The notes: generated by a model not told the origin, from the letters alone. DNA of 64,000 nt from Thermoanaerobaculia bacterium (GCA_036380735.1 DASVEE010000025.1:3041-67040), one strand, 5' to 3'; shown: positions 40,756 through 63,492, numbered from the stretch's first letter. Numbers and translations are program-made.

Positions 40756-40909
40756 GGCCAATGAACGGATAGGACCGATAGGACGAATAGGACCTATAGG
40801 ACGAATAGGACCTCTGACACTTCCGCGCGTGCCGGGCTGCGACCGTCGCGCAGCGGGGTGGGTGGGGTCCCATTCGTCCTATCGGTCCTATCTGTCCTAT
40901 CGTTCCCCC
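40752..40909. repeat. ATAGGAC-iterated palindromic element
   Basis: AATAGGGCCAATGAACGGATAGGACCGATAGGACGAATAGGACCTATAGGACGAATAGGACC - ~50-nt loop with internal CTGCGACCGTCGCGCAG palindrome - GTCCCATTCGTCCTATCGGTCCTATCTGTCCTATCGTTCC. Confidence 0.9.
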
Positions 40910-42766: not shown

Positions 42767-44038
42767 ATGAACGGAAAGCGCATCGCCATCGTCGCCGCTC
42801 TGCTCCTCGCCGCTGCGCTGACCGCCGTCGCCGCCACCCGCGGCGACCGGTGGTCGGACGAGGAAGTCGAAATCCTGCGCGGCCTGTCGCTCGCCGAGCT
42901 GGAGCCGCTGCCGGCCGACCCGACGAATCGCGTCGCCGACGATCCGCGCGCGGTGCGGCTCGGGCAGCGGCTCTTCTTCGACACGCGTCTCAGCTCGAAC
43001 GGCAAGGTGGCGTGCGCGACCTGCCACGTGCCCGACCGCGAGCTGCAGGACGGGACGCCGCTGGCGAAAGGCGTCGGCACGACCGACCGGCGCACGATGC
43101 CGATCGCCGCGACCGCCTACAGCCCGTTCCTCTTCTGGGATGGCCGCAAGGACAGCCAGTGGGCGCAGGCGCTGGGACCGCTGGAGAGCGCGGTGGAGCA
43201 CGGCGGCTCGCGCGCGCAGTACGCGCACGTCATCGCCGGGCACTATCGCGAGGAGTACGAGCGGACGTTCGGACCGCTGCCGGAACTGAGCGCCATCCCT
43301 CGGGCCGCGGGTCCGGTCGCCGATCCGGCAGCGCGCGCCGCGTGGGAGGCGATGAGCGACGAACAACGCGTGACCGTGACGCAGGTATACGTCAACATCG
43401 GCAAGGCGATCGCGGCGTACGAACGGCGGCTCCAGTACGGCGCCTCGCGCTTCGACCGCTACGTCGACGCGCTCGTCGCAAGCGGACGCGCCCCCGCGGA
43501 CGTGCTCACGCGCGACGAGCTCGCCGGACTGCGCCTCTTCATCGGGAAGGCGAACTGCACGCAGTGCCACAACGGACCGCTGCTCACGAACAACGAGTTC
43601 CACAACACCGGCGTGCCCGCCGCGGCCATCGCGAAAGTGGACCGCGGCCGGACGGCCGGCGCGAAGGACGTGCTGGCGGACGAGTTCAACTGCCGCAGCC
43701 GCTGGAGCGATGCGAAGGACGGCCAGTGCTCCGAGCTGGAGTTCCTGGTGTCCGAGGGGCACACGCTGGAGCGCGCGTTCAAGGTGCCGTCGCTGCGGAA
43801 CGTCGCCGACCGCGCGCCGTACATGCACGCGGGGCAGTTCGCCAGCCTGGATGACGTGGTGGCGCACTACAACGGCGCGCCGGCCGCACCGGCCGGCCAC
43901 AGCGAGCTGAAACCGCTGCGCCTGAGCGCGCAGGAGGTGCAGCAACTTGTGTCCTTCCTGCGCACCCTCAGCGGCGGCACCGCGGCCCCCGCGGAACTGC
44001 TGCGCGATCCGCATCAGGGACGACGACAGGACGAATAG
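42767..44038 (+). CDS. dihaem cytochrome c peroxidase (CCP/MauG family)
   Basis: 423 aa; signal peptide; two haem sites CATCHV and CTQCHN with family-typical spacing and conserved W/PxxG regions; TAG stop contributed by the adjacent repeat (GACGAATAGGAC). Confidence 0.85.
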   Translation: MNGKRIAIVAALLLAAALTAVAATRGDRWSDEEVEILRGLSLAELEPLPADPTNRVADDPRAVRLGQRLFFDTRLSSNGKVACATCHVPDRELQDGTPLAKGVGTTDRRTMPIAATAYSPFLFWDGRKDSQWAQALGPLESAVEHGGSRAQYAHVIAGHYREEYERTFGPLPELSAIPRAAGPVADPAARAAWEAMSDEQRVTVTQVYVNIGKAIAAYERRLQYGASRFDRYVDALVASGRAPADVLTRDELAGLRLFIGKANCTQCHNGPLLTNNEFHNTGVPAAAIAKVDRGRTAGAKDVLADEFNCRSRWSDAKDGQCSELEFLVSEGHTLERAFKVPSLRNVADRAPYMHAGQFASLDDVVAHYNGAPAAPAGHSELKPLRLSAQEVQQLVSFLRTLSGGTAAPAELLRDPHQGRRQDE

Positions 44039-44142
44039 GACCGACGACGAATAGGACGATGGGACAAACCGCAGCCGTTAGCCGGCGTGCTGCTGTCCTA
44101 TAGGTCCTATTCGTCCTATTCGTCCCATTTGTCCTATCGTCA
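44027..44142. repeat. ATAGGAC-iterated palindromic element between convergent genes
   Basis: CAGGACGAATAGGACCGACGACGAATAGGACGATGGGAC - loop - GTCCTATAGGTCCTATTCGTCCTATTCGTCCCATTTGTCCTATCGTCA; left end supplies the TAG stop of the peroxidase gene, right end the TGA stop of the minus-strand M1-fusion gene. Confidence 0.9.
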
Positions 44143-47100
44143 CTTGCCGGTCGTCACCTCCACCGTGTTGTCGCGCCAGACGGTGTCGATCAGGATGTTG
44201 CGGGGGTCGATGCCCGCGCGGGCTGGTTTGCCGGGCACCGTGACGGTGACCGTCTGCTGGCCGGGCTTGATGCGGTGCTGCCGGAGGTACAGCGGCTTGC
44301 CCTCCGCGGCGAAGACGCCGATCTCGATGAGGTCGTTCATCGGACGCACCGTTTCGGCGCCCTCGGTGTTCACCGCCACCTTCTTCGCGGCCACGTTCAG
44401 CGTGACGCGCCAGGCGCCGCCGCTCGCCGGCTCGGCGGTGGCGGCCTTCGTGGAGAGCTCCCAGAAGGTATTTACTTCGAAGAGGTCGACCAGGAGATAG
44501 CGGAGCGGCTCGGGCGTGACGGCTTTCAGCTCCGCGTAGAGGTCGAGCGTCGTCGGCAGCGGCGCCGTGCCGTTGCGATGCTTGTCCATCAGGCGGCGGA
44601 GGGCCAGCGTCACCTGTTTCTCGCCGACGTACTCGCGGAGGGCGTACATGGCGAACGGACCCTTCCGGTAGCCGACGAACCAATCGTCGGCGCGGAGCAG
44701 CGGGACGTCGGCACGCCCGCGAGGGTGGAGGTACGCCTCGCGCAGGATGTCGAGGAAGCGGCCGAGATGCTCGGGCCCGTAGGTCTGGTCGACGGCGTTC
44801 ATGGCGCTGTACCACGACAGACTCTCGCTGAGGAGCGCCGCGCCCTCGACGTTCGCGGGCGTGAGCTGGTTGCCCCACCATTGGTGCGCGACCTCGTGTG
44901 CCACGACGGCGAAGGGGAAGTCGACGTTCCGGTCGTCGGTGCTGGAATTGAGCAGCGCGAAGCCCTCGAAGAAGCGGATGTTGATGGGATGCGAGCGAAG
45001 ACCGATCGACGAACCGGGTGCCTCGACGAGGCGGATCTGCTGGTGCGGGTACGGGCCGAGATCTTTCGTGAACGACTCCAGCGAAGCCTGCACGCCTTTG
45101 ACGATGCGCTCCACGTTCCACGGATGGCCGCGGTGGTGGAGTACCTCGATGTCCACGTCGCGCCAACGCGCGCGATGCACGGCGTAGTCGGCGGAGAAGA
45201 TGGCGAAGCCGGGGCGGATCGGCGTGTCGGTCGCGTAATGGAAGTAGTGCCGCCCCTGTGCGCGCCACGTGCGGCGTAGGGTGCCGGGAGCGACGGCGGT
45301 CTCGTTCGCGGCCGTGCCGATGACCGCCTCGAACGCGATGCGCTCGCCGCGAGTTTCGTCGTTGCGACCGCGTGCGTCCTCCAGCCGCGGCAGCGGTGGC
45401 CGCGCAGGGAGGCCATGCAGCTTCCGCTCGCCGGCGTTCGACAGCTCCCGGTCGGGCTGGTAGCCGATGGCGGGGAGCCAGTCGCCTTCGAAGTGGGTGC
45501 CGTTGCTCGCGACGCGATCGTTGACACCGCCGTTGGTGAAGCCGCGCGGACGGAAGCGCACGCGGAACTGCATCCGCAGCGAGTCGCCTGGCTGCAGCGG
45601 CTCTTTCAGCGTGTAGATGCGATGGCCCAGTTGCTTGTCGACCAGGCGCGGCGCGAACGGCCGGTTGAACTGGATGCCGTCCGTCTCCACCTCGCGTGCC
45701 GTGGCCAGATGGATGGCGTCGATCGGCGCGGCGGTCTTGTTCACGAGATCGTAGGTGCCGCGGATGTCGGCCTCACCGCGTGCCGGCTCCAGCTCGATGT
45801 GCAGCGACGTGGCGGTCCGGCGCGGTTGCGGCACACCGTCATAGCGGCCGTGGCGCTGCTCGTACCGCGCGCGCCGCGCCGTCAAATCGTCGGAGGGCGC
45901 ATAGGCGTGCAGCACGTTCGTGTTGTAGAAGACGAAGCTTCCGACGAGCACGATGACGCCCGCCGCCGCGGCGAGACTCCACCGGGCCGGCGTGCTCACA
46001 CGGCCACGCCCGAGCCGCAGCCGCTCCTTCATGCCGCGTGACGTGCCGCGCGGCCACAGCAGCTTCGCCACGACCGCGAACAGCAACGCCCAGCCGCCCC
46101 AATACAGCTTGAACCAGAGGACCGGCGCGAGATGCGGACCGAAGCCACTCATATCGGAGTAGTCCCATCCCGGATCGGAGCCGTAGATGAGGAGGTTGTG
46201 CTCGATCCCGAGGTCGCTCGCGTACGCGGTCAGGGCGTAGGCGAGGATCACGACGAGATGGCCGACGTACTTCTGGTTGACGATGACGTGCACCGCGACC
46301 GCGAGCGCCGTGAAGAGGAGGTAGCCGCTGAGGTAGATGCCGAACAGCACGATCAGATAGAGCCCGACCTCGAAGTCGTGATGGCCGAGGCGGATCTGGG
46401 TGAGCAGGCCGCCGCCCATCATCAGTGCCTGCAGCAGCACGAGCACGAGCGTGAGTCCCAGCAGCTTGCCCGTGAACGGCACCCAGTCGGGGACCGGCGT
46501 CGCATCGGCGATGACGCTCATGCCCGCGTCGCGCTCGCGCCAGATCACTTCGCCGGCGTAGAAGACCATGAGAAAGATGGCCATGAAGCCGGGGAGATCG
46601 CCCGGGCCGGCGAGGTGCGCGAGGATGCGCTCCGTCACGGGGTGGAGCGGGATGCCGATGTGCTCCATCAGCTCCGGCCCCGCCGCGACGAGGAACAGCA
46701 CCACGACCGCCAGCGCGATCGCGCCCCAGCTCAGCACGATCTCGCGGAACGAGCGCCGCGTGATGACGAGCATCTGCCGCACGCGCGTGCCGAAGCCGAA
46801 GCGGCGTTCGACCGCGGGAACGGCGATCGGCGTGGTGCTCTGCTCTTCGTTCGGGGAGAGTGCCGCCGCAGGGCGTGAACGCCGGAGCCACCGCGGCATG
46901 AACGTCCGCGGGGTGTGATGGGCGAAGCGGAAACCGGCATACGTCAGCGCGAGCACGCCGACGGCGATGCCGAGCCAGAGCAGGCGATTGGTGAGGAGGA
47001 TGCCTTCGAGCGCGAGGAGTTGCGACCCTTTCTGCGCCGGCGTCCATGCGCGCGACAACGCGCTCATGACGGTAAAGCCGAATGGATCGAGTTGTTGCGC

Positions 47101-47715
47101 CAGCTCCCATTTGCCGAGGTGCTTGGCGATGAATTCGTTGCCGAAGGTCGGCAGCAGGAAGAGGATGGCGGCACCGATGTAGCTGGCAATCGAGCGGCGC
47201 GTCAACGCGGCCAGGGCGAAGAGGATGGCCGTCGTGACGAACGCGTTCGGGAGCGTGCAGACCGTGTACGCGTTGAGGTACACGGCGGGACGGAACGGAG
47301 CGATCAGCTCCGCCTCGATGCCCGGTAACCGCGCGGCGACGATCAGCCCGATCGGCACCGCGGCGAGCAGCAGGGCGCTCATGGCGAAGGCGCCGAGGAA
47401 ACGTCCGCCGAGGTGCGCGGCTTTGCTGATGGGCGTGGTGTAGAGGAGCGGCTCCATCCGCGTCTGCATGTCGCGCGTCGCCGCATCTCCGGCGATCGCG
47501 GCCGCGACCAGCAGCGCGAACATGCTGCCGATGACGGAGACGGCGGCGGTGGTGAACGGCCCGTTGAAGAAGTAGCCTCCGGTGCGCGCGTTGCCGAGGA
47601 ATGCTTCGGTGCCGACCTGCAGCGTGAGACCGAGGACGGCGGCGAAATAGAGCCACGTCGAGCGGCGCCGTGTCTGGTAGGCGAGCTCGAAGCAGAAGGT
47701 CTTCCAGACCTTCAT
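44140..47715 (-). CDS. ABC-2-type permease domain fused to M1-family zinc metallopeptidase (paralogue of 37138..40755)
   Basis: 1191 aa; N-terminus MKVWKTFCFELAYQTRRRSTWLYF aligns with the paralogue (MPLKLLEIFRFELDFRMRRPATWLLL); HEVAHQWWGNQ gluzincin motif; start overlaps upstream ATPase stop by 4 nt. Confidence 0.85.
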   Translation of the reverse strand: MKVWKTFCFELAYQTRRRSTWLYFAAVLGLTLQVGTEAFLGNARTGGYFFNGPFTTAAVSVIGSMFALLVAAAIAGDAATRDMQTRMEPLLYTTPISKAAHLGGRFLGAFAMSALLLAAVPIGLIVAARLPGIEAELIAPFRPAVYLNAYTVCTLPNAFVTTAILFALAALTRRSIASYIGAAILFLLPTFGNEFIAKHLGKWELAQQLDPFGFTVMSALSRAWTPAQKGSQLLALEGILLTNRLLWLGIAVGVLALTYAGFRFAHHTPRTFMPRWLRRSRPAAALSPNEEQSTTPIAVPAVERRFGFGTRVRQMLVITRRSFREIVLSWGAIALAVVVLFLVAAGPELMEHIGIPLHPVTERILAHLAGPGDLPGFMAIFLMVFYAGEVIWRERDAGMSVIADATPVPDWVPFTGKLLGLTLVLVLLQALMMGGGLLTQIRLGHHDFEVGLYLIVLFGIYLSGYLLFTALAVAVHVIVNQKYVGHLVVILAYALTAYASDLGIEHNLLIYGSDPGWDYSDMSGFGPHLAPVLWFKLYWGGWALLFAVVAKLLWPRGTSRGMKERLRLGRGRVSTPARWSLAAAAGVIVLVGSFVFYNTNVLHAYAPSDDLTARRARYEQRHGRYDGVPQPRRTATSLHIELEPARGEADIRGTYDLVNKTAAPIDAIHLATAREVETDGIQFNRPFAPRLVDKQLGHRIYTLKEPLQPGDSLRMQFRVRFRPRGFTNGGVNDRVASNGTHFEGDWLPAIGYQPDRELSNAGERKLHGLPARPPLPRLEDARGRNDETRGERIAFEAVIGTAANETAVAPGTLRRTWRAQGRHYFHYATDTPIRPGFAIFSADYAVHRARWRDVDIEVLHHRGHPWNVERIVKGVQASLESFTKDLGPYPHQQIRLVEAPGSSIGLRSHPINIRFFEGFALLNSSTDDRNVDFPFAVVAHEVAHQWWGNQLTPANVEGAALLSESLSWYSAMNAVDQTYGPEHLGRFLDILREAYLHPRGRADVPLLRADDWFVGYRKGPFAMYALREYVGEKQVTLALRRLMDKHRNGTAPLPTTLDLYAELKAVTPEPLRYLLVDLFEVNTFWELSTKAATAEPASGGAWRVTLNVAAKKVAVNTEGAETVRPMNDLIEIGVFAAEGKPLYLRQHRIKPGQQTVTVTVPGKPARAGIDPRNILIDTVWRDNTVEVTTGK

Positions 47716-48662
47716 GACGCCACGCCGTTCAGCCGCCGCAGCTCCGTCCGTGTGAGGGTTTGAACAGCCGCGCCGTTGGCCACGTGCCCGTTCATGGTGC
47801 AGAAGTAGACGTCCTCGAGGTCCGGCTCCACCGGCTCGAAGCCGGTCGGCGCGGTCTCGCTGTAGACGTGCACGAGCGTCCGTCCGGCGAGGAGGCGCGT
47901 GGAGATGACGGCGTGCTGCCGCTCCAGCGCCGCGAGGTCGCTCTTCTCGACGACGCGCTTCCAGATGCGGCCGCGCAGCTCGTCGACCGCGCGCAGCGGC
48001 TCGGCTTCGAGCAGGATGCGTCCCTTGTCGATGATGGCCATGCGGGTGCAGAGCTCGGAGACGTCTTCGACGATGTGTGTGGAGAGGATGACGACGCTGT
48101 TCTCACCGAGCTCGCTGAGGAGGTTGAGGAAGCGCACGCGCTCGGCGGGATCGAGTCCCGCGGTGGGCTCGTCGACGATCAGCAGCTTCGGGTTGCCGAG
48201 CAGCGCCACCGCGACGCCGAAGCGCTGGCGCATGCCGCCGGAGTAGCCGCCGAGCTTCTGCTTGCGCGCCTCCCAGAGGTTCGTCTGCCGCAGCAGTGCC
48301 TCGATGACCTGCTTCCGGTCGCCGCGCGCGGTGATCCCTTTGAGGACCGCGAAGTAGTCGAGCAGCGCCTCGGCGCTCGACTTCGGGTAGACGCCGAACT
48401 CCTGCGGCAGATAGCCGAGCGTCTTCCGCACCTCGTCCTTCTGCCGCAGCACGTCGAGGTCGCCGAGCTGAATCGCGCCGGAGTCGGGCTCCTGCAGCGT
48501 AGCGATCGTGCGCATGAGCGTCGACTTCCCGGCCCCGTTCGGCCCGAGCAGCCCATACATCCCGCGAGGGATCGTCAGACTGACGTTCTGCAGGGCCTTG
48601 AGCCCGTTCGTGTACGTCTTGGAAAGGTTTTCGATGCGCAGTTCAAGCGGAGCGGTGGCCAT
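47712..48662 (-). CDS. ABC transporter ATP-binding protein
   Basis: Walker A GPNGAGKST, signature YSGGMRQRF, Walker B LLIVDEPTAGLD; 316 aa; translationally coupled to the permease-M1 fusion. Confidence 0.9.
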   Translation of the reverse strand: MATAPLELRIENLSKTYTNGLKALQNVSLTIPRGMYGLLGPNGAGKSTLMRTIATLQEPDSGAIQLGDLDVLRQKDEVRKTLGYLPQEFGVYPKSSAEALLDYFAVLKGITARGDRKQVIEALLRQTNLWEARKQKLGGYSGGMRQRFGVAVALLGNPKLLIVDEPTAGLDPAERVRFLNLLSELGENSVVILSTHIVEDVSELCTRMAIIDKGRILLEAEPLRAVDELRGRIWKRVVEKSDLAALERQHAVISTRLLAGRTLVHVYSETAPTGFEPVEPDLEDVYFCTMNGHVANGAAVQTLTRTELRRLNGVAS

Positions 48663-48753
48663 GTCCCTCTGTATACGGGCGACGGGGCGCGCGGTGTACA
48701 GGGTGAGGGGCGGTTGGTACGAACGGTCGGATTCCGGGGGTAAAGGTGGCGGG

Positions 48754-48838
48754 GACAGGACGGATGGGACGAATAGGACGGATGGGACGGATGGGCCTCC
48801 GGTGAGTCCTATCTGTCCTATTCGCCCTATCCGTCATC
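48754..48838. repeat. ATAGGAC-family element
   Basis: GACAGGACGGATGGGACGAATAGGACGGATGGGACGGATGGG - short loop - GAGTCCTATCTGTCCTATTCGCCCTATCCGTCATCG. Confidence 0.85.
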
Positions 48839-48846
48839 GCGCTGGC

Positions 48847-49059
48847 TTACAGGTCACCCGGCGTCAGACCGGTCCGCTTGGCAATGCGCGCCAGCATCCG
48901 CGGTCCGATCTCATCGTGATCGTGGAACGCGAATACATAGTCCGGCCAGCCTGCACGTTCGAGCACGCGGTGCGACGTGCCGGATTGCCGCTTGAGCGAC
49001 CAGCCGATTCGCGTCAGTGCGGCAAAAACACGGCTTGCCTTGGATGACGGCCAGTTCAT
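48847..49059 (-). CDS. hicA: HicA-family mRNA-interferase toxin
   Basis: 70 aa; conserved HicA core GWSLKRQSGTSHRVL ... DEIGPRMLARIAKRTGL; overlaps hicB stop by 4 nt. Confidence 0.75.
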   Translation of the reverse strand: MNWPSSKASRVFAALTRIGWSLKRQSGTSHRVLERAGWPDYVFAFHDHDEIGPRMLARIAKRTGLTPGDL

Positions 49060-49265
49060 CCGCTGATCGCGAAGACTCCGTCGAGCTCCGGGATCTGCTC
49101 GCCGTGCTCGAGGCGGTCGGCCAGTACGCGGAAGGCAAGTGCTTTTGCTTTGGCAACAGCTTCTTCGCGGCTGGCGCCGTACGTAAGCACGCCGGGTAAA
49201 TCGACGACTTCGCCAATCCAGCGTCCGTCTTCTTCGCGCTCGACCTCTACGGTGAAGTCACTCAT
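49056..49265 (-). CDS. hicB: HicB-like antitoxin (UPF0150 fold, short form without DNA-binding tail)
   Basis: Start MSDFTVEVEREEDGRWIGEVVDLPGVLTYGASREEAVAKAKALAF typical of the HicB N-domain; an alternative upstream start at 49307 would overlap the MBL gene stop. Confidence 0.65.
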   Translation of the reverse strand: MSDFTVEVEREEDGRWIGEVVDLPGVLTYGASREEAVAKAKALAFRVLADRLEHGEQIPELDGVFAISG

Positions 49266-49303
49266 CGCCGTTATCGTACTCCGCTCGGTCCTTTCGCTCC
49301 ACG

Positions 49304-50521
49304 TCACAACTCGTAGTCACACCACATTTCCCCCACTTTGAACGGCCGGTCCACCTGATCCAACGCGTCGCTTTGGGCGTAACGGTTCCCAACCCGTTCC
49401 TTCACCGCATCCACCAGCTTGGGATACGGCACCGGGAAGTGGCCGCGGTTGAACGACTTGACGGTGTCCGTGGACGCCATCGCCACGACGCCTTTGGCGT
49501 TCATCAGGTCGAGCGCTCCGTGCGGCGTGGCGTTGTGGCTGCCGTGGTGGCCGACCTTGTAGAAGCTGATGTCGCCGAGGATCGACTCCCAGTCGGCTTC
49601 CCACGACTTCCAGTTGCCCCATTGCGCGTCGCCGGGGAACAACAGCGTCTTGCCGCGGTACTGCAGCAGCAGCGAGAGACTCGTGTTGTTGAGGTAGTTG
49701 TCGACCGAGAGCGCGAGCGCCTGCAGCGGGATCGCGCACTGCTGCACGAGCAGCTCGCGATACGCCTCGTCGAGCACCGGCGTGCTGTCGTTCCAGCGGT
49801 CGCCGAAGGGGAGGAGGTTGTCGGTGGTGACCTGGCCGTTTTCGTCGAGCCCGAACAACTGCGAGTCGGGCGGATGCATCTTGCTGAGGAACGACGTGTC
49901 GGTCGACGGCGCGAGCACGCGCACGGTGAGTCCCTTGATGCCGCCCGCATCGGTGAGGACGTCGCCGCCTTTGAGGTACTTCGTTCGGCTCTTGTCGCCG
50001 AAGCCGTCGCGGAGCAGCGCCAGCGCCTTCGCGTTGTTGCCGGTGGAGGAGCGCCCCTTCGCGCCGAGCGCGTTGAGCGTGACCCACTCGATGAGCGGGT
50101 CCGGCGGCGCGCCGTCCGCCGCAACCCGAGTCATGTGCGCATCGAGCAGCGACGCCAGCGCGGCCGCTTTGGCGTGCAGCTTCTTCGCGGCCGGATTGCT
50201 GAGATCCTCGAGCCACGGCATCCACACCTCACCGACTTCGAAGCGGCTGAACCGCTCCGCCTCGGTACCAAACCCGCTGATGTGATCCGCATGCGCGTGC
50301 GTCGCGACGATCACGTCGAGCTTTCCGCCGGTCTCTTCCTCGATCGCCTCGACAGCTTCCGCGAGTCCTTTGAACTGGCTCTGCGAGTGGACGCCGCAGT
50401 CGATCAGGATGTGCTGCGCTTTCGATCCGGAGCCGATAGTGACGAGGAAGCAGTCGCCCATACCGACGCGATACATCCGGACGCGCAGCTTCGCACCGCT
50501 GGTGTTCTTCTTCACGGCCAT
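49304..50521 (-). CDS. MBL-fold metallo-hydrolase
   Basis: 405 aa; HxHxDH motif VIVATHAHADHISG, further conserved His/Asp (KVGHHGSHNA); no signal peptide; 1-nt gap from upstream peptidase gene. Confidence 0.8.
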   Translation of the reverse strand: MAVKKNTSGAKLRVRMYRVGMGDCFLVTIGSGSKAQHILIDCGVHSQSQFKGLAEAVEAIEEETGGKLDVIVATHAHADHISGFGTEAERFSRFEVGEVWMPWLEDLSNPAAKKLHAKAAALASLLDAHMTRVAADGAPPDPLIEWVTLNALGAKGRSSTGNNAKALALLRDGFGDKSRTKYLKGGDVLTDAGGIKGLTVRVLAPSTDTSFLSKMHPPDSQLFGLDENGQVTTDNLLPFGDRWNDSTPVLDEAYRELLVQQCAIPLQALALSVDNYLNNTSLSLLLQYRGKTLLFPGDAQWGNWKSWEADWESILGDISFYKVGHHGSHNATPHGALDLMNAKGVVAMASTDTVKSFNRGHFPVPYPKLVDAVKERVGNRYAQSDALDQVDRPFKVGEMWCDYEL

Positions 50522-50522
50522 G

Positions 50523-52370
50523 TCAGCACCCCCGATGAATCGCCGACAGGTGCAGCGCCGGCGGAGTGACGTCGGTCAGATAGTTGGTGAACGGTGACGC
50601 GGCGAGCGCGGTCTCGACGAACGACTTCTGCCGCTTGCGCCGCGACTTGGAGGTGAGGTTCTTGTACACGATCATCGTCGCCGTGCCGGCCGTGTCGAAC
50701 ACGACGGTCGCACCTCCCTTGAAGCGCTTCTCCGTGTCGCCCGGCTCGAGCTCCGCGTGCCCCACGATGTGCGCGATGAACTCGACCTGCGGACGCTGGC
50801 TCCCGCCGCGGACGACCATGTTCACCGACCGCACCGCGCGCGGAATCCGCGGAATGTCGCAGTTGCAGGTCGCCTTCGTGTGCGTGTCGTCTTCGCAGAG
50901 ACCGAAGGCGAAGGGATGCGCGCGCACGACCTCCTCCAGCTTGTTGCAGTTGTCGTCGAAGAACTTGTTCGGCTCGAGGAGGTCGAAGCAAAGCCCGGGA
51001 CAGGCGGGCGTGTCCGGCGGGGCCTTCTGCCACAGCAGCGACTCCTCGGCCAGCGAAGTGACGTCGTCCGGCACGATGCCGCGCGCGCGGAACGCCTGGA
51101 TGAAGGCGTCGCGATAGTCGTGATCGTCGCTGCGGTACAGCTCCGTGTCGGCGGTGATGAGCGCGCGGAGGAAGTCGCCGAAGGTGATGTCGACCGGCGG
51201 ACAGTAATCGATGGCGCGGATGCACATCGTGCAGAAGTGACTCGCGACTTTCGACGCTTCCTTGGCCAGCCTCGCGGCGATGTCGGGATGGATCTCGTCC
51301 GAGCCGCTCGACACCGCGCGCGCGAGGCGGATCAGGTCGGCCGTGCGGTGCATGAAGGAGCTGAAGAACGCGTCGAACACGGCGGCGACGAGCACTGCTC
51401 CGCGCTCGTGCGCTTCCGTCGCCTCGGCCAGCGCTCGCGGATTGGGAGCGACGCCGAGGGCCGAGCGGAGCGCGGCGCGCCGGCCCATCGATTCGCCGAA
51501 CTGGCGCGCCAGGTCGAGGAGCGGGTTCCCTTCCGGCATCTCGCCGACGATGAAGATCGGGCTGTCGGGGTCGCGGTCGGCGACGGCGCCGCGCGGCGCG
51601 AGGTCGAAGCGGTGCAGCACCCCGCCGGAGCGCTGCAGCGTGTCGCGCACGACGTCCTCGAAGCGGAAGTGCTGGAACAGCGCGACGATGTCCGCGAAGG
51701 CCTCATGGAACCCGAGCACGTCGGGGTTCGTCGCCTCCATGAACGTGTCGCGGAGCGTGTCGACGATGGCGTGCGTCGTCTCGTGCGCGATGATGTCGTG
51801 CGAGAGGCAGGTGAAGACGGTGCCGGCGGGCAGTCCGCTGCCGGCTTCCTCGCTCGACGCACGGAAATAGCCGAAGAGCAGCGCGCCGAGCTCACGCGAG
51901 TAGTACGCGTTCGGCTCGTACATCGCGTGCGGGAAGATGCGCAGCACGTTGCGCGAGCCGGCCGCGTCCTGGAACCGGAAGAGGATGTCGCGTCCGAGGG
52001 CACGCTCGAAGATGTTGATCGTCTCCATGGCCACGGCGTAGACCATCTGCTGGTGAAAGCGTGGATCGGATTCGCTCGGCGCGAGTCCCCCCTCCACGAG
52101 CGCGGCGGGGGAGTTGAGGTCGACCGGCTTGTAATAGAGGTTGTTCGTGGCGTCGAAGTCGATGACGTGGATCTGCTGCCCTTCGAGCCGCTGCTCGAGG
52201 TCCTCGTACTTGACCCGGACGGTCATGTGATTGCCGAGGCGGCGGCCACGCCCGGGATCGAAGGCGTACACGCGCAGCGCACGATACGGCGGCTTATCGA
52301 CCTCGGGTGCGAGGTCCGGTAGCGGGTTCGCGGACATAGGAATCTCCTCTGAGGACGACGACTCGTACAA
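50523..52370 (-). CDS. leaderless thermolysin-like (M4-type zincin) metallopeptidase with Cys-rich C-terminal region
   Basis: 615 aa; no signal peptide; HEXXH IIAHETTHAIVD followed about 25 aa later by GFHEAFADIVALF (matches M4 NEAxSDIFG third-ligand motif); C-terminal Cys clusters (CTMCIRAIDYCPP, CPGLCFD, CEDDTHTKATCNCD). Confidence 0.65.
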   Translation of the reverse strand: MYESSSSEEIPMSANPLPDLAPEVDKPPYRALRVYAFDPGRGRRLGNHMTVRVKYEDLEQRLEGQQIHVIDFDATNNLYYKPVDLNSPAALVEGGLAPSESDPRFHQQMVYAVAMETINIFERALGRDILFRFQDAAGSRNVLRIFPHAMYEPNAYYSRELGALLFGYFRASSEEAGSGLPAGTVFTCLSHDIIAHETTHAIVDTLRDTFMEATNPDVLGFHEAFADIVALFQHFRFEDVVRDTLQRSGGVLHRFDLAPRGAVADRDPDSPIFIVGEMPEGNPLLDLARQFGESMGRRAALRSALGVAPNPRALAEATEAHERGAVLVAAVFDAFFSSFMHRTADLIRLARAVSSGSDEIHPDIAARLAKEASKVASHFCTMCIRAIDYCPPVDITFGDFLRALITADTELYRSDDHDYRDAFIQAFRARGIVPDDVTSLAEESLLWQKAPPDTPACPGLCFDLLEPNKFFDDNCNKLEEVVRAHPFAFGLCEDDTHTKATCNCDIPRIPRAVRSVNMVVRGGSQRPQVEFIAHIVGHAELEPGDTEKRFKGGATVVFDTAGTATMIVYKNLTSKSRRKRQKSFVETALAASPFTNYLTDVTPPALHLSAIHRGC

Positions 52371-54469: not shown

Positions 54470-57400
54470 ATGTCTGTTGTGCGTGGTCGTGTGCTCGTGG
54501 CGCCTTCTGGCAGAGGCATCGCGAACCTGATCGTCGAGGCTTTCGACGTGGAAACGAAAGACCCGTCCGTGCCGAGGCGGCGGCTGGGATCGGGCGAGAC
54601 GAACGAGAAGGGCGAGTTCCGCATCGACTACACCGTCGATGCTGCAGACACGTCGGGTGTCGGTCTGATGATCGCGGTCTCGCCGCCCGAACGTCCGGAC
54701 CGGACCACCGTGCCGCTGTATATGTCGCGTGAGGTTCGCCAGCGCGCGGCGGCGGTGGAGGTCTTCCTCATTACGCTCACCGAGGGCGATCTCGAAAAAG
54801 GAGGCGGCGTGCCCGTCGTGCCGCCGCCGGGAGATCCGGAGCCGGCGTCGATGGCGGCCGCGCGTCTGCTGGCCGATTCGCGTCGCAGCCTGGACCTGGC
54901 GCGCGCCCGCACGGACGCGGAGCGGATGAAAGTCGATGAGGCGCGTGCGGTGACGGCCGCGTTCCGCGGGGAGTTCGCGCCCGCGCTGCAGCGCAGTCTG
55001 AGCAGCGTCAGCGAGGAACAGGCGCGCGCGGATACGTTCGTCGTCCCCGGAGCATCCGTCGCGGCGGTCTCTCGCGGCGCGATGACGAACGATCTCTTCA
55101 ATGTCATCAACAATCCGCAAAGACGCGCGCCGATGAAGGCGCGCATCGCGCTGACCGGCCAGCAGCTCACGGACCTCCGCGCGCGGCTGGGAGCAGGCAA
55201 TACGATCTCCGCGCACGCTCTGCATGAAGTCCTGGGAGGCCCTCCGCCTTCATCGCAGTCGAGCTATCTGCGCGAGGATCCGCTGGCGATCGTCTGCCGC
55301 GAGATCACCACGGACGAGCGCACCGCTGCCGCGGCTCTCGACGTGCCGCTTCCGGCCTCGACGCCTCCACCGGCGCCGCCGGATGGTGACGTCCCCGGCA
55401 CTGGCGTCGACGTGCTGGAAGCGGGTGACGTGAAGCGTTACCTGGCGCGGCTGGTGGACACGATGACGTCGCCCGAGGAGGGCGTGCTCGCGGGGCTGGA
55501 GCCACGCGCCACGCGCGGCATCGTCGACGCGCAGGTGCAGGGTCTCGCCTTCCAGCCCAGTCCTGCCGACACGACGGCGTACTACGACTTCCACAATCTT
55601 CAGGTCGCATTCCGGCACGTCTGGCAGGAGGCGGTGGATGAAGGCGTGCTCACTCTGGCCGAGGCAGCGTACGACGAGATCGTGATGGGCGGCGGCCGGC
55701 CGGCTCCGCAACCGGGCACGCCTCCGCTGCAGTCGCTGGTCAGCGAGGCGCAAGCCGTCAAGCGCGCGCGCGCCGGCACGCAGAGCGTCGGCTCCGCGCT
55801 GCGCAGCGGGTTGCTGCCGGGCTTCATCGACAATCTGCTCCATCCCGACAAGGTTCTCGACCCGCCGGCGGCGGAGGCTCTGCCGTCCCTCGTGAACGAG
55901 CTCACGCAACGTTTGCAGGAGCCGTACGCCTTCACCACCTTTGCCGCCAATCGCCAGGAGCGGAGCGTGAACTTCGGCATTCGCGTCACCTACCAGCAGG
56001 AGTGGAAGCCGCTGGAGTACCAGGCCGGCCGTCTGGCCAAGACCATCACGCTCGCTCCGAAGGAAGTGCGCAAGTACAGCAAGACGGTGAAGCGCCATCG
56101 CAAGCGCGCGGAGAAAGAGGTCGAGAAGCACGTCAGCATCCGCAAGGACGAGTTGAGCCAGACCTCGCGCGTGGAGCAGGAGATCATCCGCAAGGCCACC
56201 GCCAAGACGCATTTCGAGATCGGCTCCGAGACGTCGTCCGGCAACCCGGAGCTCACGCCGACGTCGACGGTGAAGACGTCGTTCGAGCGCGAGGTCGGCC
56301 AGGTCTCGGACAACGTCAAGAAGTCCTTCAACGAATCGGTGCGGAAAGCGGTGCAGGAGCTCACGAACGAGCTCACCGTGGAGATCAACCGCGAAGAGAC
56401 GGAGGATGTCGAAGAGACCGAGTCGGGTGAGATCGCCAATCCGAACGACGAACTGGCGGTGACGTTCCTCTTTTACGAGCTGCAGCGCCGCTACCGCATC
56501 GCCGAGCGCATTCATCGCATCATGCCGGTCGTGCTGGTGGCGCAGGAGATGCCCAAGCCGCACGAGATCAACGAGGCCTGGCTGATCAGTCACGACTGGA
56601 TCCTGCGCCGTGTGCTGCTCGACGATTCGTTCGCGCCGGCGTTGAGCTACCTCTCCAGCCAGGTGGTCGGAGACCAGGTCGCGCTGTCGGAGATGAAGAC
56701 CAATATCTCCCAGCAACGCGCGGCCATTCAGGAGCTGAAGCAGCAGTTGAAGGTCGTTCGGCAGCGTGCATCCACGTACCGCAATCTGCTCGAGCGATCG
56801 CTGCTGCACGCCGCCGAGAAGAGCAAAGACAGCGACGATGGTTGGTTCAGCGGCATCCCGATCGTCGGCGGCGCCGTCGAGCTGGTCGAAGACGCCATCG
56901 ACGCCGTCGGCGATTTCATCAACCCCGACATGCCCGAGGTCGGCCCCAGCCGGCAGGACACGCTCAAGGAAACGATCGAGCGGACCATCGATGAGGAGCG
57001 CGATCTGCTGATGCGTCTCGAGCGCGAGGTCACCGCGCTGAACGCGCTGACCGAGGCCTACGCGAAGCTCCTGGCCGAGAACTACAACCAGCGCACCCAG
57101 ATCCTGCGCCTGCGCACCCACGTGAAGCAGAACATCCTCTATTACATGCAGGCGATCTGGAATCACGAGCCTCCCGACCAGCGCTATCTGCGCCTGCATG
57201 AGACGCCGGTGCCGGTGTTCGTGGGCGACCAGACCTATCGCTTCGCCAGCGTCGACCCGGTGCCGGGCTCGATGAGCAATCCGCCGCATCGCAAGCTGGG
57301 CGTGGACACGCTCGATCCGACACAGGTTTTCGAGGCCGAGGTCTTCTGCAACCTCTCCACGCACGAGACGCGACCGCTCTCACGCGTCGCCGATCTCGAC

Positions 57401-57916
57401 AACCTCCTCGGCTATTTCGGCAACTACATGATCTTCGGCCTGAAGGAATCGAACGCGTTGACGGACTTCATGATGGAGCCGTACCTGCTGCGCGGCTTCG
57501 ACGAGCTGGTCGATCCCGACGACCTCGGCAACTGGAGTCTCGACGAGTTCGTCGACTACGTCGTTTGTCTCCGCGAGCGCATGACCGCCGAACAGTTCGA
57601 GCTCGTCAAGCCCGAGCTGCGCGCGCAGTACGAGCGTCTGATTACCGCTCCGCATCGAAACGGGGACGTGATCACCATTCCCACCGGCTCGCTGTTCATC
57701 GAGGCGCTGCCGGCCACGTCGTCGCTCATCGAGAAGTTCAAGGCCATCCACCGCGCGGTGGACGTGAAGAAGGCCCAGGCCGAGGCGCGCCACGCGGAGA
57801 TCCGGAACCTCTGGATGGTCGACCGGCTGCTGCACGACGAGCGCGAGGATCCCGACATCGACAAGAAGATCATCATCGAAGGCGCCGTCGGACCGGTCCT
57901 CCCGGTGGACGAGTAG
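54470..57916 (+). CDS. large uncharacterised protein (1148 aa; N-terminal CarboxypepD_reg/transthyretin-like fold, central Lys/Glu-rich coiled-coil region)
   Basis: GGGAGG SD 7 nt before ATG; no signal peptide or TM; N-terminus MSVVRGRVLVAPSGRGIANLIVEAFDVETKDP...GEFRIDY; central KEVRKYSKTVKRHRKRAEKEVEKH... charged block; no Walker motifs; clean protein-like composition over 3.4 kb while the opposite strand gives only an Arg-rich ORF. Confidence 0.75.
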   Translation: MSVVRGRVLVAPSGRGIANLIVEAFDVETKDPSVPRRRLGSGETNEKGEFRIDYTVDAADTSGVGLMIAVSPPERPDRTTVPLYMSREVRQRAAAVEVFLITLTEGDLEKGGGVPVVPPPGDPEPASMAAARLLADSRRSLDLARARTDAERMKVDEARAVTAAFRGEFAPALQRSLSSVSEEQARADTFVVPGASVAAVSRGAMTNDLFNVINNPQRRAPMKARIALTGQQLTDLRARLGAGNTISAHALHEVLGGPPPSSQSSYLREDPLAIVCREITTDERTAAAALDVPLPASTPPPAPPDGDVPGTGVDVLEAGDVKRYLARLVDTMTSPEEGVLAGLEPRATRGIVDAQVQGLAFQPSPADTTAYYDFHNLQVAFRHVWQEAVDEGVLTLAEAAYDEIVMGGGRPAPQPGTPPLQSLVSEAQAVKRARAGTQSVGSALRSGLLPGFIDNLLHPDKVLDPPAAEALPSLVNELTQRLQEPYAFTTFAANRQERSVNFGIRVTYQQEWKPLEYQAGRLAKTITLAPKEVRKYSKTVKRHRKRAEKEVEKHVSIRKDELSQTSRVEQEIIRKATAKTHFEIGSETSSGNPELTPTSTVKTSFEREVGQVSDNVKKSFNESVRKAVQELTNELTVEINREETEDVEETESGEIANPNDELAVTFLFYELQRRYRIAERIHRIMPVVLVAQEMPKPHEINEAWLISHDWILRRVLLDDSFAPALSYLSSQVVGDQVALSEMKTNISQQRAAIQELKQQLKVVRQRASTYRNLLERSLLHAAEKSKDSDDGWFSGIPIVGGAVELVEDAIDAVGDFINPDMPEVGPSRQDTLKETIERTIDEERDLLMRLEREVTALNALTEAYAKLLAENYNQRTQILRLRTHVKQNILYYMQAIWNHEPPDQRYLRLHETPVPVFVGDQTYRFASVDPVPGSMSNPPHRKLGVDTLDPTQVFEAEVFCNLSTHETRPLSRVADLDNLLGYFGNYMIFGLKESNALTDFMMEPYLLRGFDELVDPDDLGNWSLDEFVDYVVCLRERMTAEQFELVKPELRAQYERLITAPHRNGDVITIPTGSLFIEALPATSSLIEKFKAIHRAVDVKKAQAEARHAEIRNLWMVDRLLHDEREDPDIDKKIIIEGAVGPVLPVDE

Positions 57917-57920
57917 GGAA

Positions 57921-59727
57921 GATGGGCGACGGAATCACCGACGTCGAGCGCGGAGTGTCTGTCGCGCCGAAAGGGCTCGCCAGCGGTGAGGCGTGGCTGG
58001 CCATGGTCGAGCGCATGATGCAAATCGTCACAGGCGGGCAGCGCTGGGACTACTCCGTGCGTCACGACGTGGAGAAGGATATCGAGGAGTCGAGACGCAC
58101 CGGGATCACGCCCAGGCAGATGTTGGAAGGCCGCCGCCAGTTCTCTACCGATACGGAACGTCTCTACTATCTCCGCTTCCTGCTCGAATACGAGATCGAA
58201 GGAGGCGGGTGGATTCAACTCGGGATCTACTACCGCGGACCCAAGGACCCGGCCCGAATCGCCGCGGCCATGGCCGACTACGAGATCAAGCGCCTCCAGT
58301 CGGTGGCCGAGCAGGCGGTGCCGGTGCCGCCTCCTCTGCAGCGACAGCGAAGCGTGCGCGGCCTCGACACCGATTGGGAGCGAGGTGCGGCGCAGCGGGA
58401 ACGAGAAGAATATGAAGCGTTTCTGATCGAGGTGGCCCGCCAGGAAAGTGCGGACGAAGCACGTTCACGAGATCTTCAAGCGCGGTACGGTGGCAGGACG
58501 GGCACGAAGAGCATGCTCGATTACTACGTCGGCGACCCGGTCGTGTATGCCGCCGACCGAGCGATCAAGGCGGTCCCCGGAATGGTCAGCCTGGCGTTGG
58601 ATTTCGTTCCCGTCGTCGGTCAGTTGAAAGCCGCCCTGGAAGCGATCAGCGGCCGCGACCTGATCACCGGCCGGCATCTCGCCGACTGGGAGCGCGGCCT
58701 CAATATCCTTCTCTCGGTTCTGCCGTCGGCGAAAGCGGCGTTCCGCGGAGGCAAAGCGGGGCTCGCGGCGCTGGCCAAAGCGACGGCGCAGAGTGGCAAA
58801 CCGGCCGCCGAGGTCTATCGCGCCGCGAAGGGCGCGAGCCGGCTCACCGACGCGGAGGTGAAGGCGGCGAAGGTCCTTCGCAACGGCAAGCCCGTCAACG
58901 CGGCCGCATTCGACAAGGTCGCTGGCAGCATCGACGAGATGATGGGGACGCCGAAGGTCGGCCGCACCGAGATGTACCGCGTCGCGGCCGGCGAGATCCA
59001 CGATGGGCGCATGGTCACCAGCTCCATCGCCAGCTCACCGGTGAGCGTGCCGCCGAAGCCCGTCGGCCGCCCGGTGACGCCGACGCGAACGACGCCCCGC
59101 GTCGCCACGACGCTGGCGAACGCCGGTGTCCTCCCCGAGGCCATCGCGGCGCTGAACCGGGCCGGCGTGGCGGTGAACAAGGTATCCAGATTCCTGACCA
59201 CGCCGCGGGTGAGGGACTTCGTCAACACCTTCCATCAGAGTCCCGGCTTTCATCTGATCGTCGAGGATCTCGCCAAGGGCGCCACGAAGAAGAAAGGCGC
59301 GCTGTTCATCATCGACTTCGTCAATGACGCGAAGAACAAGATCGATCCGAAGCTGGCCATGTTCGAGATGGACGTGGGAATTACCAAGAGCCCGCTGCGG
59401 GACCGTTCCGCGCGGGTGACCGATCTCGTGGTGACCCAGGGGGGGCGCGCGTTGAACTACGAGTTCAAGGCGTACTCGATGGCCTCACTCAACAAAGCGC
59501 TCGCCGACCCGCAGAAGATCCTCCAACTGGTCAAGGACGTCGCCATCCACGGGCGCCGGAACATCAAGTGGGTGTTCGATTCCGCGGAGATCTCGGAGTC
59601 GTACCTCCACAAGAAGTTCACCGCCATCATCAATGCCGATCCGTTTCTCAAGAGCCGGTTCAGCGGCAAGGCGGACGAACTGGAAGCCATGCTGGACGAA
59701 CTGCTGATTCTTTACCCGAAGAAATAG
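57921..59727 (+). CDS. uncharacterised protein (602 aa) with pre-toxin-TG-like segment and candidate PD-(D/E)xK-like C-terminal domain
   Basis: ATG 5 nt after upstream stop (GGAAG SD); segment PGMVSLALDFVPVVGQLKAALEAISGRDLITGRHLADWERGLNIL resembles the pre-toxin TG module of polymorphic toxins; C-terminal FHLIVEDL ... VTDLVVTQGGRALNYEFKAY fits E ... D ... E-x-K spacing; no signal peptide. The listed ORF extends upstream into the previous gene. Confidence 0.7.
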
Positions 59728-59744: not shown

Positions 59745-59788
59745 GTACGAACGGGACGATTCGCCTCGTCCCATTCGTCCCATCATCC
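59745..59788. repeat. short ATAGGAC-family-derived hairpin / bidirectional terminator
   Basis: GTACGAACGGGACGATTCG-CCTC-GTCCCATTCGTCCCATCATCC between convergent stops (59727 and 59792). Confidence 0.5.
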
Positions 59789-62700: not shown

Positions 62701-63109
62701 TGCGCTCGATCGCGTCCGCCGAGACGGTGAGCGCCGCACCGGAGTAGACGCGCGAGAAGCGCTGCGTGATGCGTCCCTCCGTCGTTGCTGCCTGCGTGCT
62801 CACGCCCGGACGCCGCGCGAGCTCACGCTCGATGTTCGTGAGGTCGCGCTCGAACGTGGCGAAACGATCGGCGAACGCGCGCTGCGCTTCGCGCTTCGCG
62901 GACGCGCTGCCGTTCGCCGCGCGCTCGAAGAGCGGCGTGTCCCGAAACTGCACGATCACCGGCACGCGCCCGTTCTTCGGAACCGATATGGCCGAGGTGA
63001 TCGTCTGCCCATCGTCCCTGTGCACCTGCACGAGGGGAGTGCTGCCTCCCGCGATGGCAACCGTAGCGACGAGGCAGAGAAGAAAAGCCGTGGAGATCCA
63101 CCGATTCAT
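59792..63109 (-). CDS. secreted subtilisin-like (S8) serine peptidase with I9 propeptide and long C-terminal extension
   Basis: Signal peptide MNRWISTAFLLCLVATVAIAGG (alternative TTG start at 63148); catalytic D (VAILDTGVD), H (HGTHVAAIVGG), S (GTSMATPHVSG); about 650 aa beta-rich C-terminal region. Confidence 0.85.
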   Translation of the reverse strand: MNRWISTAFLLCLVATVAIAGGSTPLVQVHRDDGQTITSAISVPKNGRVPVIVQFRDTPLFERAANGSASAKREAQRAFADRFATFERDLTNIERELARRPGVSTQAATTEGRITQRFSRVYSGAALTVSADAIERIAQLDYVRAVHPDRTLRASLERSVPKIRAPEVWSQLGTRGRNIVVAILDTGVDYRHPALGGAFGPGQRVAGGYDFINKDADPMDDDGHGTHVAAIVGGNGGGITGVAPEVTFLAYKVLDEEGHGRESTIVAGVERAADPNQDGNPADHVHVANMSLGAPGDPDSPLTQAVERASAAGVIFCIAAGNDGGYQRIGSPGNAPSAITVGASSIDDQLASFTSKGPIVQSLEIKPEVVAPGENIMSASIGGGTEPMSGTSMATPHVSGIAALLRAIHPDWPAAHIKAAIVGTAVGLTKNAMAEGAGRVDALRAATADVIVQQSVLSLGGASSAEAHWLSRSTVTLVNHGTVARTLTLTAESPHAGIGVTLDVTTVVLEPGASRDVHLTVDVDSAAVPVPESDSLSYSGAIEIAGGAVPLRVPWAFVKGAAVTIDYDGPEMYEALLFGIGTTTVGHVPTESRGRSSVLLPHGTYDVQLFPLPGMAGEQPVIVVEQQVVQGSTTIPVRRASAVHELELSAEDEKGADIREGRRCQQYLALIGPSQTVNGVTIVSATGGKFLGSAISDRFTLLTFEQCNDELDRKRAYGGQYAPLTGLAASQKLTIEKSDWSRTPIRMKVPEGAVQPTAVILTGWLWHGTRESSASSWGLAEAVTGSEWEGTLYLTASRHPAMSATGKAQIKGSAAVRPWVLLESPRLRRTEAGIMPWAYKTATPATYVARENETLVFGEGLWYVQPIVTRALWLLVMRPEYRGALGEDRLGEMTGSRAVLRDSTGTVVDAPRAADWRNIDVPPGRYDYEVTKPFTLRGIAGSALLHARFDTTLEDVAPPLLTTFQLLDAGGRNRTSLVRGQGGTLQFSAMDLIPSGDRQELTFAPVRTESLTVQWRPHGTSAWLPLRTTHIATEIANTAAEQAALGHPGLGSTFRADLMAASQSTAAAIDLTVRFEDASGNSYEWTLAPAVAIDESGGRRRAAGR

Positions 63110-63177
63110 GCGCCGATCGTCCACCTGCACGGCCTGTTGCAAATGCAACCGAACAGGAAACTGCGGCCGGGCAGGGG

Positions 63178-63478
63178 AACGATAGGACGAATGGGACGGA
63201 TAGGACGAATGGGACGAATAGGACCGATGGGCAAACCTGGTGTCATCCCGAAGCCCCCGTATGGGGGCCGGGCGGGGGAGGGGGCTGAGGGATCTGTGTG
63301 GGGGAACGTGACACCACTTCTACGCCGCGATTCCCCCACACAGGTCCCTCACCGCCCTCCGCCGCCCACGCCCCCATACGGGCAGTTCGGGATGACACGC
63401 TTTATGCCTGTTGGACCTACTGTCTTTGTCCCATCCGTCCTATCCGTCCTATAGGTCCTATAGGTCCTATCGTCCCCC
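63178..63478. repeat. complex ATAGGAC-family element with nested internal palindromes
   Basis: Outer arms AACGATAGGACGAATGGGACGGATAGGACGAATGGGACGAATAGGACCGATGGG (63178-63231) and TTTGTCCCATCCGTCCTATCCGTCCTATAGGTCCTATAGGTCCTATCGTCCCCCC (63425-63478); inside, GTCATCCCGAAGCCCCCGTATGGGGGC pairs with GCCCCCATACGGGCAGTTCGGGATGAC, and CTGTGTGGGGG pairs with CCCCCACACAG. Confidence 0.85.
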
Positions 63479-63492
63479 CGTCGCTCTCCGCG

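Follow-up and report, generated by a model that had tools for sequence, protein, structure and literature searches.

A cytoplasmic thermolysin-fold metalloprotease and a ComEC-like hydrolase form a conserved two-gene cassette, tentatively a protease-licensed nuclease module

What is the role of a thermolysin-like metalloprotease without a signal peptide, whose gene is coupled to that of a metallo-β-lactamase (MBL)-fold hydrolase? The question is raised by a locus at positions 48,847-52,370 of a 64,000-nt stretch of DNA from a Thermoanaerobaculia bacterium (GCA_036380735.1, DASVEE010000025.1:3041-67040), hereafter the window. The minus strand carries four genes here in head-to-tail order: the protease gene (hereafter zincin), the MBL gene, a hicB-like gene and hicA. 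An initial annotation, made from the sequence alone, had likened this arrangement to anti-phage or stress modules while recognizing no named system in it; indeed, PADLOC gives no match for the zincin. Comparing the locus with its relatives, we found that what is conserved is a cassette of two genes, the zincin followed by the MBL. We tentatively interpret the pair as a self-contained abortive-infection (anti-phage or conflict) cassette in which the metalloprotease would license a latent nuclease, a reading to which we give slightly less than an even chance.

A scan of one genome per species yielded at least 576 loci with a relative of the zincin, and the best 80 were analyzed. An MBL homologue was located immediately downstream of the zincin, on the same strand, in 74 of these 80 loci, which represent different species of many phyla, and in four of the other six the contig ends too soon. 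In most loci, the MBL open reading frame (ORF) starts between -4 and +10 nt from the zincin stop codon; in the window the junction reads TGA-c-ATG, i.e., the 1-nt spacing initially described. The pair was likewise present in all of 13 further loci, taken from plasmids, from contigs of metagenomes and from an unverified ‘phage’ contig, so that the proposed coupling of the two genes is borne out well beyond the window. The ‘phage’ contig (L095; MT836994.1, a 9.5-kb ‘UNVERIFIED: Bacteriophage sp.’ entry from human faeces) holds the pair at 3623-6602, with 46% and 34% identity, and represents either a cassette carried by a phage or mobile element or mis-binned bacterial DNA. Pairwise distances between zincins correlated with those between their MBLs (r = 0.88, Mantel p = 0.001, n = 66). 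All-against-all ORF clustering of the 80 loci revealed no third gene conserved beside the pair, the only recurring neighbor being a patatin gene, in a minority of loci. SH3-domain neighbors were considered as a conserved third gene and dismissed, being secreted proteins that were found on two contigs and did not recur. We also looked for a zincin-MBL fusion among the zincin relatives of ~1,000 aa and found none; these proteins are instead tandem zincins or carry N-terminal S8, phosphoesterase or amidase fusions, and in one tandem zincin (P0046) both copies keep the HExxH motif.

The 615-aa zincin initially annotated corresponds to the longest ORF (50,523-52,370, minus strand), which opens with a TTG codon at 52,370. 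This length stands for the ORF, yet the product is likely the 604-aa protein that begins at an ATG at 52,337 (gene at 50,523-52,337), a start we prefer because a Shine-Dalgarno-like AGGAG (52,344-52,348) sits six bases upstream. The 604-aa protein is also the product given in an NCBI record of a Thermoanaerobaculia metagenome-assembled genome (100% identity). An in-frame TGA immediately precedes the TTG, so that neither a longer N-terminus nor a signal peptide is possible, and the description of the protein as leaderless holds: the check for an upstream start found none. These observations bear on the simplest alternative, namely that the zincin is an ordinary secreted M4 protease with a mis-called start that happens to lie beside an unrelated hydrolase gene. 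Some databases do label its homologues ‘peptidase M4’. However, besides the upstream TGA, the N-termini of the aligned homologues are short, polar or non-hydrophobic and variable, Pfam detects no M4, FTP or PepSY domain in the protein, and the MBL partner is conserved across phyla. On the strength of the TGA, the homologue N-termini and the conserved pairing, we reject this alternative and leave it practically no chance.

The zincin itself presents an intact active site. Its HETTH motif (residues 185-189, codons at 51,771-51,785, minus strand) provides two zinc ligands and the catalytic glutamate, and its GFHEAFADIV motif (residues 209-218, codons at 51,684-51,713) contains E212, which presumably serves as the third zinc ligand expected of a gluzincin. 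None of H185, E186, H189 and E212 varies across 72 homologues or in a 19-sequence alignment, confirming the active-site elements named at the outset; F210, H211, F214 and D216 are invariant alongside E212 in both alignments. The invariant blocks as a whole comprise NAYY, CLSHDI-x-HE-x-x-H, FHE-x-FAD and D-Y-C-P-P. The protein thus has what defines a gluzincin, an HExxH motif with a glutamate ligand ~20 residues downstream, a spacing that we take to resemble that of thermolysin (M4). Structure comparison of the predicted model points to a thermolysin or fungalysin fold, including the two-domain organization of thermolysin, and in this respect supports the initial annotation, while identity to the top fold matches of these two kinds is only 9-18%. 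Assignment to the M4 family, by contrast, did not survive: the zincin has no threshold match in Pfam, NCBIfam, PADLOC, PHROGs or the PDB sequences, and its relatives reach 17-19.5 bits on the Pfam M4 profiles (PF01447 and PF02868) against a cut-off of 22.4. Compared with thermolysin (M4) and fungalysin (M36) of clan MA(E), the window zincin lacks a signal peptide and a propeptide, adds an N-terminal beta segment, a hypervariable loop (residues 241-270) and a C-terminal region of ~160 residues with an F-x-x-L-H tail, and is predicted to be cytoplasmic and operon-coupled to a nuclease gene. We conclude that it is a thermolysin-fold gluzincin, but one that is cytoplasmic and belongs to a family separate from M4. 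This family is large, numbering at least 8,000 relatives in a protein collection clustered at 90%, and 3,410 (E <= 1e-3) or 929 (E <= 1e-30) clusters at 50%.

Conservation is distributed unevenly along the protein. The catalytic core (residues 76-240 and 288-440) shows 55-60% mean pairwise identity, compared with 21% for residues 441-500 and 31% for residues 501-604. This low conservation marks the C-terminal third (residues 441-604, 50,526-51,017, minus strand) as a candidate sensor or regulatory region. It consists of a hypervariable linker with a clade-specific cysteine cluster, an alpha/beta domain (~501-580) and the F-x-x-L-H tail, a motif with which nearly all of 66 zincins end, a few residues short of the C-terminus. 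In the predicted model, the predicted local distance difference test (pLDDT) score is 94-98 for residues 441-520 and below 50 for the C-terminal tail. The cysteine-rich C-terminal region initially noted, with its possible zinc ribbon, is present in the window’s own clade; C446 is conserved family-wide, while C481, C491 and C493 are kept in all 23 close relatives, but of 49 distant relatives 46 have a gap at this place, which indicates that this cluster is specific to that clade.

We next turn to the partner. The MBL gene (49,304-50,521, minus strand) encodes an MBL-fold hydrolase of 405 aa that resembles ComEC and is a candidate latent DNase. The protein matches Pfam Lactamase_B (9e-12), and its top match, both by sequence and by fold, is the ComEC domain of PDB 9ic4 (fold E 2e-11; pLDDT of the AlphaFold2 model, 83.7). 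With this ComEC/Rec2 nuclease domain it shares the HxHxDH, GD and HHGS motifs, whereas, unlike ComEC/Rec2, it is soluble and stand-alone, with neither a membrane channel nor an OB domain. The first of these motifs is the metal-binding HAHADH already recognized in the initial annotation (residues 75-80, codons at 50,282-50,299), and H75, H77, D79, H80, D298, H325 and H326 show little or no variation in sets of 58 and 66 sequences. What sets the protein apart from the ComEC domain is ~120 additional residues in two blocks (~105-175 and ~205-280), such that the 190 residues from 86 to 276 align where ComEC has 69. According to the ComEC alignment and the predicted structure, insertion 1 (49,997-50,209, minus strand) is helical with a variable loop at residues 151-162, and in the alignment it shows indels and low conservation. 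Insertion 2 (49,682-49,909) contains an indel-rich, low-confidence loop (residues 222-250), with pLDDT values of 59-67, conservation of 0.2-0.33 and inserts of 37 and 70 alignment columns. Within this hypervariable loop lies a conserved island, Pro238-Phe239 (codons at 49,805-49,810): across 66 sequences from many phyla, P238 is 91% and F239 97% conserved while the flanks vary, and F239 is invariant in the 58-sequence set. Judging by this pattern, Pro238-Phe239 is a candidate recognition or cleavage site.

The MBL also has links to known defense proteins. It matches the PADLOC models LmuA-MBL (8e-23, partial), Avs1a and RTasMBL. An MBL encoded beside a large CHAT-like gene in one related locus (L002) matches LmuA-MBL at 8.7e-77, and the window MBL aligns with it collinearly and over its full length (E 2e-10). 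When the L002 protein and its sequence relatives from L020, L028 and L034 were combined into a comparison alignment, hhalign related the window MBL to it with a probability of 98.4% (E 7e-15), and the two insertions were found at positions collinear with those of the comparison MBLs. By sequence, then, the window MBL appears to represent a clade related to, yet distinct from, the MBLs of the defense models. Many zincin-linked MBLs (e.g., P0200, P0211 and P0239) begin with a low-complexity tail of 20-50 residues rich in Lys, Ala, Pro and Thr, which may bind DNA; the window MBL has no such tail.

Where, then, does the cassette reside? Plasmids carrying the zincin number 99, of which 49 are conjugative, and come mainly from rhizobia and Hymenobacter. 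In two of six plasmids inspected, the cassette lies beside a cyclic-oligonucleotide-based anti-phage signaling system (CBASS), and in one of the two also beside Hachiman-like genes: on pRle248a of Rhizobium leguminosarum, a patatin-zincin-MBL trio (WP_020048022, WP_026264760 and WP_162676347) is located between a CBASS operon and a Hachiman-like pair of DUF1837 and helicase genes, and on pColt5.8d, the cassette is located between CBASS/SAVED genes with ImmA-HTH and an AAA-HNH pair. Together with the homology of the MBL to proteins that match PADLOC models, these two plasmid copies make the anti-phage reading offered in the initial annotation plausible. Other plasmid copies adjoin integrases, Tn3 or IS630 elements, or VapC or CHAT genes. 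The cassette in its two-gene form is also present at loci of Pseudomonas (L070), Caballeronia (L041) and Bradyrhizobium (L010 and L039). In three loci (L002, 9281-13412; L020, 1581-5650; L034, 9253-13247), each from a different species, the pair is directly adjoined by a second, different MBL gene, of the type that PADLOC’s defense models match, and a ~980-aa protein, whose CHAT/caspase-like C-terminal region was judged by eye, with one sub-threshold Pfam Peptidase_C25 match (L020); this arrangement resembles the published caspase-nuclease (Canu) one. Elsewhere, at L085, a Peptidase_U49 gene (13699-15048, minus strand) lies two genes downstream of a zincin-MBL copy, with RHS-repeat toxin genes upstream. 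U49 is the family of the Escherichia coli phage-exclusion protease Lit. The flanks of the cassette differ even between relatives of 76-77% identity.

These contexts speak to the possibility that the pair performs housekeeping repair or turnover, e.g., removal of DNA-protein crosslinks, or salvage of DNA and peptides. A protease and a DNA-processing MBL nuclease would make a logical pairing for crosslink repair, in which SprT/Wss1-type proteases and SNM1-type MBL nucleases take part, and some chromosomal contexts of the pair are indeed housekeeping ones. Nevertheless, we regard this explanation as very improbable: the pair is found on plasmids, its genomic context is different in every locus inspected, close relatives included, it is linked to phospholipases and amidases and neighbors defense systems on some plasmids, and the zincin has no similarity to known crosslink-repair proteases.

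The linked phospholipases and amidases belong to a wider set of changing partners. Patatin is adjacent in 19 of the 80 loci. In 17 loci a patatin phospholipase gene abuts the zincin-MBL pair, most often on its upstream and in some cases on its downstream side, and a phospholipase D (PLD)-like gene lies upstream of it on a Bradyrhizobium plasmid (L090). In two loci, of Pyrinomonadaceae and Acidobacteriota (L051, 3366-7809; L052, 3428-7812), a short patatin gene is followed by a subtilase-zincin fusion, which is split in L052, and the MBL is absent, so that a lipase appears to replace the nuclease. Because these two loci keep the patatin and the S8-zincin without an MBL, the zincin emerges as the constant element. 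N-terminal extensions, as read from match positions, are present in ~40% of the best 150 zincin cluster representatives, and the fusions sampled include Peptidase_S8, Amidase_3, Amidase_2, DUF2278, a phosphoesterase and a second zincin copy. In short, the zincin is constant and the degradative enzymes that surround it change.

Such a repertoire raises the possibility of an offensive or lytic toolkit, in which these enzymes (protease, DNase, lipase, cell-wall amidase) would be cargo that leaves the cell by a non-classical export route and serves interbacterial killing, predation, or autolysis and developmental cell death, and not immunity. Amidase_2/3, patatin, PLD-like, phosphoesterase and S8 activities are typical of toxins and lytic enzymes, RHS or polymorphic-toxin genes are found near some copies (the window itself has a PT-TG pre-toxin gene), and a ‘cell wall hydrolase’ gene lies upstream of one copy (L089). 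On the other hand, signal peptides are missing: the window zincin leaves no space for one, and the Amidase_3 fusion begins at residue 4. Nor did the loci contain a conserved immunity gene, secretion-system marker or adaptor nearby; moreover, the closest MBL relatives found match PADLOC models of defense systems, and two plasmid copies neighbor CBASS, one of them Hachiman-like genes as well. We therefore consider a toolkit of this kind unlikely.

The closest precedent, which the initial annotation had missed, is provided by the protease-activated MBL pro-nuclease modules described in 2025. In these modules, ComEC-like MBLs with two gating insertions are pro-nucleases, which are cut by a partner protease at two sites and then degrade DNA, thereby aborting infection (PMC12799240, PMC12642450). 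The partner proteases described there belong to trypsin-like, caspase-like or subtilisin-like types and come fused to sensors, among them STAND NTPases and HamA (PMC12799240, PMC12642450), and the modules include HamMAB, the trypsin-MBL pairs of Avs1/Avs2, ‘Canu’ and a subtilisin-associated MBL clade (Tuck et al. 2025, PMC12799240; Evans et al. 2025, PMC12642450). Like these modules, the window pair combines a ~400-aa ComEC-like MBL bearing two insertions with an adjacent, co-diverging protease gene, has copies on plasmids, some of them in defense islands, and shows comparable effector modularity; its gene order, protease then MBL, is that of Canu and unlike that of the trypsin modules. It differs in that its protease is a thermolysin-fold metalloprotease, neither a serine nor a cysteine protease nor a member of the three classes of Evans et al., and in that this protease carries no recognizable STAND, HamA or other sensor. 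No metalloprotease or zincin partner is named in the main texts of PMC12799240 and PMC12642450 or in the supplementary text of PMC12799240, although Tuck et al. refer to ‘other diverse protease families’, none of them named (PMC12799240). In the literature we found no description of a metalloprotease-MBL or zincin-patatin-MBL system. By analogy, the window pair would be a distinct clade that follows the logic of a protease-licensed nuclease, here with a cytoplasmic metalloprotease.

From these features we infer the following course of events. Translational coupling of the two genes would cause both proteins to be made together in the cytoplasm. The MBL, presumably a zinc-dependent DNase of the ComEC type, would be kept latent by the two segments inserted in its core, which by analogy may occlude the active site. 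The zincin, for its part, would remain inactive until a trigger is perceived, probably through its fast-evolving C-terminal third, and its activation might involve release of the conserved F-x-x-L-H tail. Once active, it would cut the flexible loops of the MBL, with Pro238-Phe239 as a candidate site, thereby unleashing DNA degradation and bringing the infected cell to a halt. The corresponding protease module of relatives would also license lytic enzymes encoded next to it or fused to it, namely a patatin, a PLD-like enzyme, an S8 protease, a peptidoglycan amidase or a phosphoesterase. A bolder version of this proposal, in which the pair constitutes a fourth, metalloprotease-based and autonomous class of protease-licensed immune effectors, whose ~600-aa zincin both senses and cleaves and serves as a hub that unlocks a pro-nuclease and a changing set of lytic zymogens, fused or neighboring, seems to us doubtful.

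Several observations weigh against a protease-licensed nuclease. The correlated divergence of zincin and MBL may result from joint inheritance alone. Searches of Pfam, NCBIfam and PADLOC identified no known sensor domain in the zincin, and the known MBL-activating proteases are sensor-fused. The window MBL scores 57.9 bits on the NCBIfam Avs1a model, far under the cut-off of 420, and its insertion 1 is modeled with confidence as helices (pLDDT 79-97), unlike the disordered loops of HamM and Avs1a. In addition, several chromosomal copies lie amid ordinary housekeeping genes, the association with defense islands was seen in sampled examples only, and partners of the peptidoglycan amidase type also fit an interbacterial-toxin or lysis role.

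Some of these observations are shared by another form of conflict or defense cassette, in which the two enzymes would act in parallel or in the reverse order, the zincin degrading proteins of the phage or the host, as Lit does, and the MBL being controlled otherwise. Both active sites are intact, and the existence of a zincin with a patatin and no MBL implies that an MBL substrate is not strictly needed; the ordered helices predicted for insertion 1 do not resemble a floppy gate, and a gene of the Lit family lies near one copy. Against parallel action, the tight gene coupling (-4 to +10 nt) and the correlated divergence suggest a physical or functional partnership, and an ungated cytoplasmic DNase would be toxic. 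Furthermore, the MBL has the insertion architecture of the comparison MBLs, a kind whose published members are zymogens (PMC12799240). We thus view parallel action as improbable, albeit less so than the toolkit, and retain licensing of the nuclease by the zincin as our preferred reading.

The remaining genes of the locus do not appear to belong to the cassette. hicA (48,847-49,059, minus strand) is a toxin gene by Pfam (HicA_toxin, PF07927; 38 bits, where 27 are required), and it is overlapped by 4 nt by the hicB-like short antitoxin gene (49,056-49,307, minus strand), which starts at GTG 49,307 or ATG 49,268 and encodes 70-83 aa. The product of the latter is sub-threshold in Pfam, scoring 21.4 bits for PF15919 and 21.2 bits for PF21748 (HicB_lk_antitox and UPF0150; cut-offs ~27). 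The two thus resemble a HicAB type II toxin-antitoxin system in that hicA passes Pfam and a small upstream partner overlaps it, but the hicB-like gene is short and sub-threshold. The MBL stop codon either overlaps the GTG (GTGA) or precedes the ATG by 36 nt. Inclusion of hicBA in the arrangement, however, could not be upheld: neither hicA nor hicB is present in the 80 and 13 related loci, and relatives at 77%, 76% and 68% identity, whose flanks are different, lack them too. hicBA is therefore a local neighbor or insertion outside the conserved module, one that is probably co-transcribed with the zincin and MBL here.

Similarly, the ATAGGAC element downstream of hicA, which had been proposed to delimit the cluster, is a real palindrome but no boundary. 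It spans 48,753-48,835 and is made of 9-nt repeats (GGACGRATR) arranged in 30-nt inverted arms at 48,759-48,835, with a predicted RNA hairpin of -50 kcal/mol (z = -6.2), and it flanks the gene cluster on one side only. The GGACGRATR pattern has 67 matches in the window, at 15 or more sites, compared with 0.13 expected, and the family usually takes the form of two inverted blocks of tandem 9-nt units. Copies are located at 805-901, 9516-9559, 20922-21241, 24333-24367, 28017-28145, 30601-30765, 36221-36255, 36947-37051, 40763-40897, 44029-44134, 48753-48835, 59764-59780, 63176-63228 and 63424-63580. The element is a generic interspersed repeat and not a marker of this cluster; the family looks like a repetitive extragenic palindromic (REP)- or terminator-like repeat of this Thermoanaerobaculia genome, and the copy downstream of hicA may act as a terminator-like hairpin.

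Other loci in the window deserve mention. On the plus strand, a 1148-aa ORF (54,470-57,916) that matches nothing in Pfam or PADLOC precedes a 720-aa ORF (57,565-59,727) with a PT-TG pre-toxin domain, a marker of polymorphic toxins; since the two mechanically called ORFs overlap by ~350 nt, the true start of the latter gene must lie further downstream. Together, 54,470-59,727 looks like a second conflict-type locus near the zincin-MBL pair. On the minus strand, 59,792-63,148 encodes a 1118-aa subtilase (Pfam Peptidase_S8, 2e-58), which also matches the PADLOC ‘subtilase’ (4.5e-34) and IetS models. Also on the minus strand, 44,140-47,715 encodes a 1191-aa protein. Its translation shows an N-terminal half of multi-pass membrane character and, towards the C-terminus, the zincin motif HEVAHQWWG; by eye, the protein resembles a fusion of a permease with an M1-type aminopeptidase. 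Its gene overlaps an ABC ATPase gene (47,712-48,662, minus strand) by 4 nt and is thereby coupled to it.

In 2025, protease-gated ‘suicide’ enzymes came to be seen as a widely used principle of bacterial immunity, described so far with serine or cysteine proteases mounted on known sensors. If our reading is correct, the cassette would add a zinc-metalloprotease version of these protease-gated effectors, and a thermolysin-fold enzyme would be acting inside the cytoplasm as a regulated switch. The cassette is widespread, matches no current family or defense-system profile, and is compact, its two genes occupying ~3 kb, which makes it directly testable. The variable partners fused to the zincin, in turn, offer a route to further latent effectors and to the trigger.

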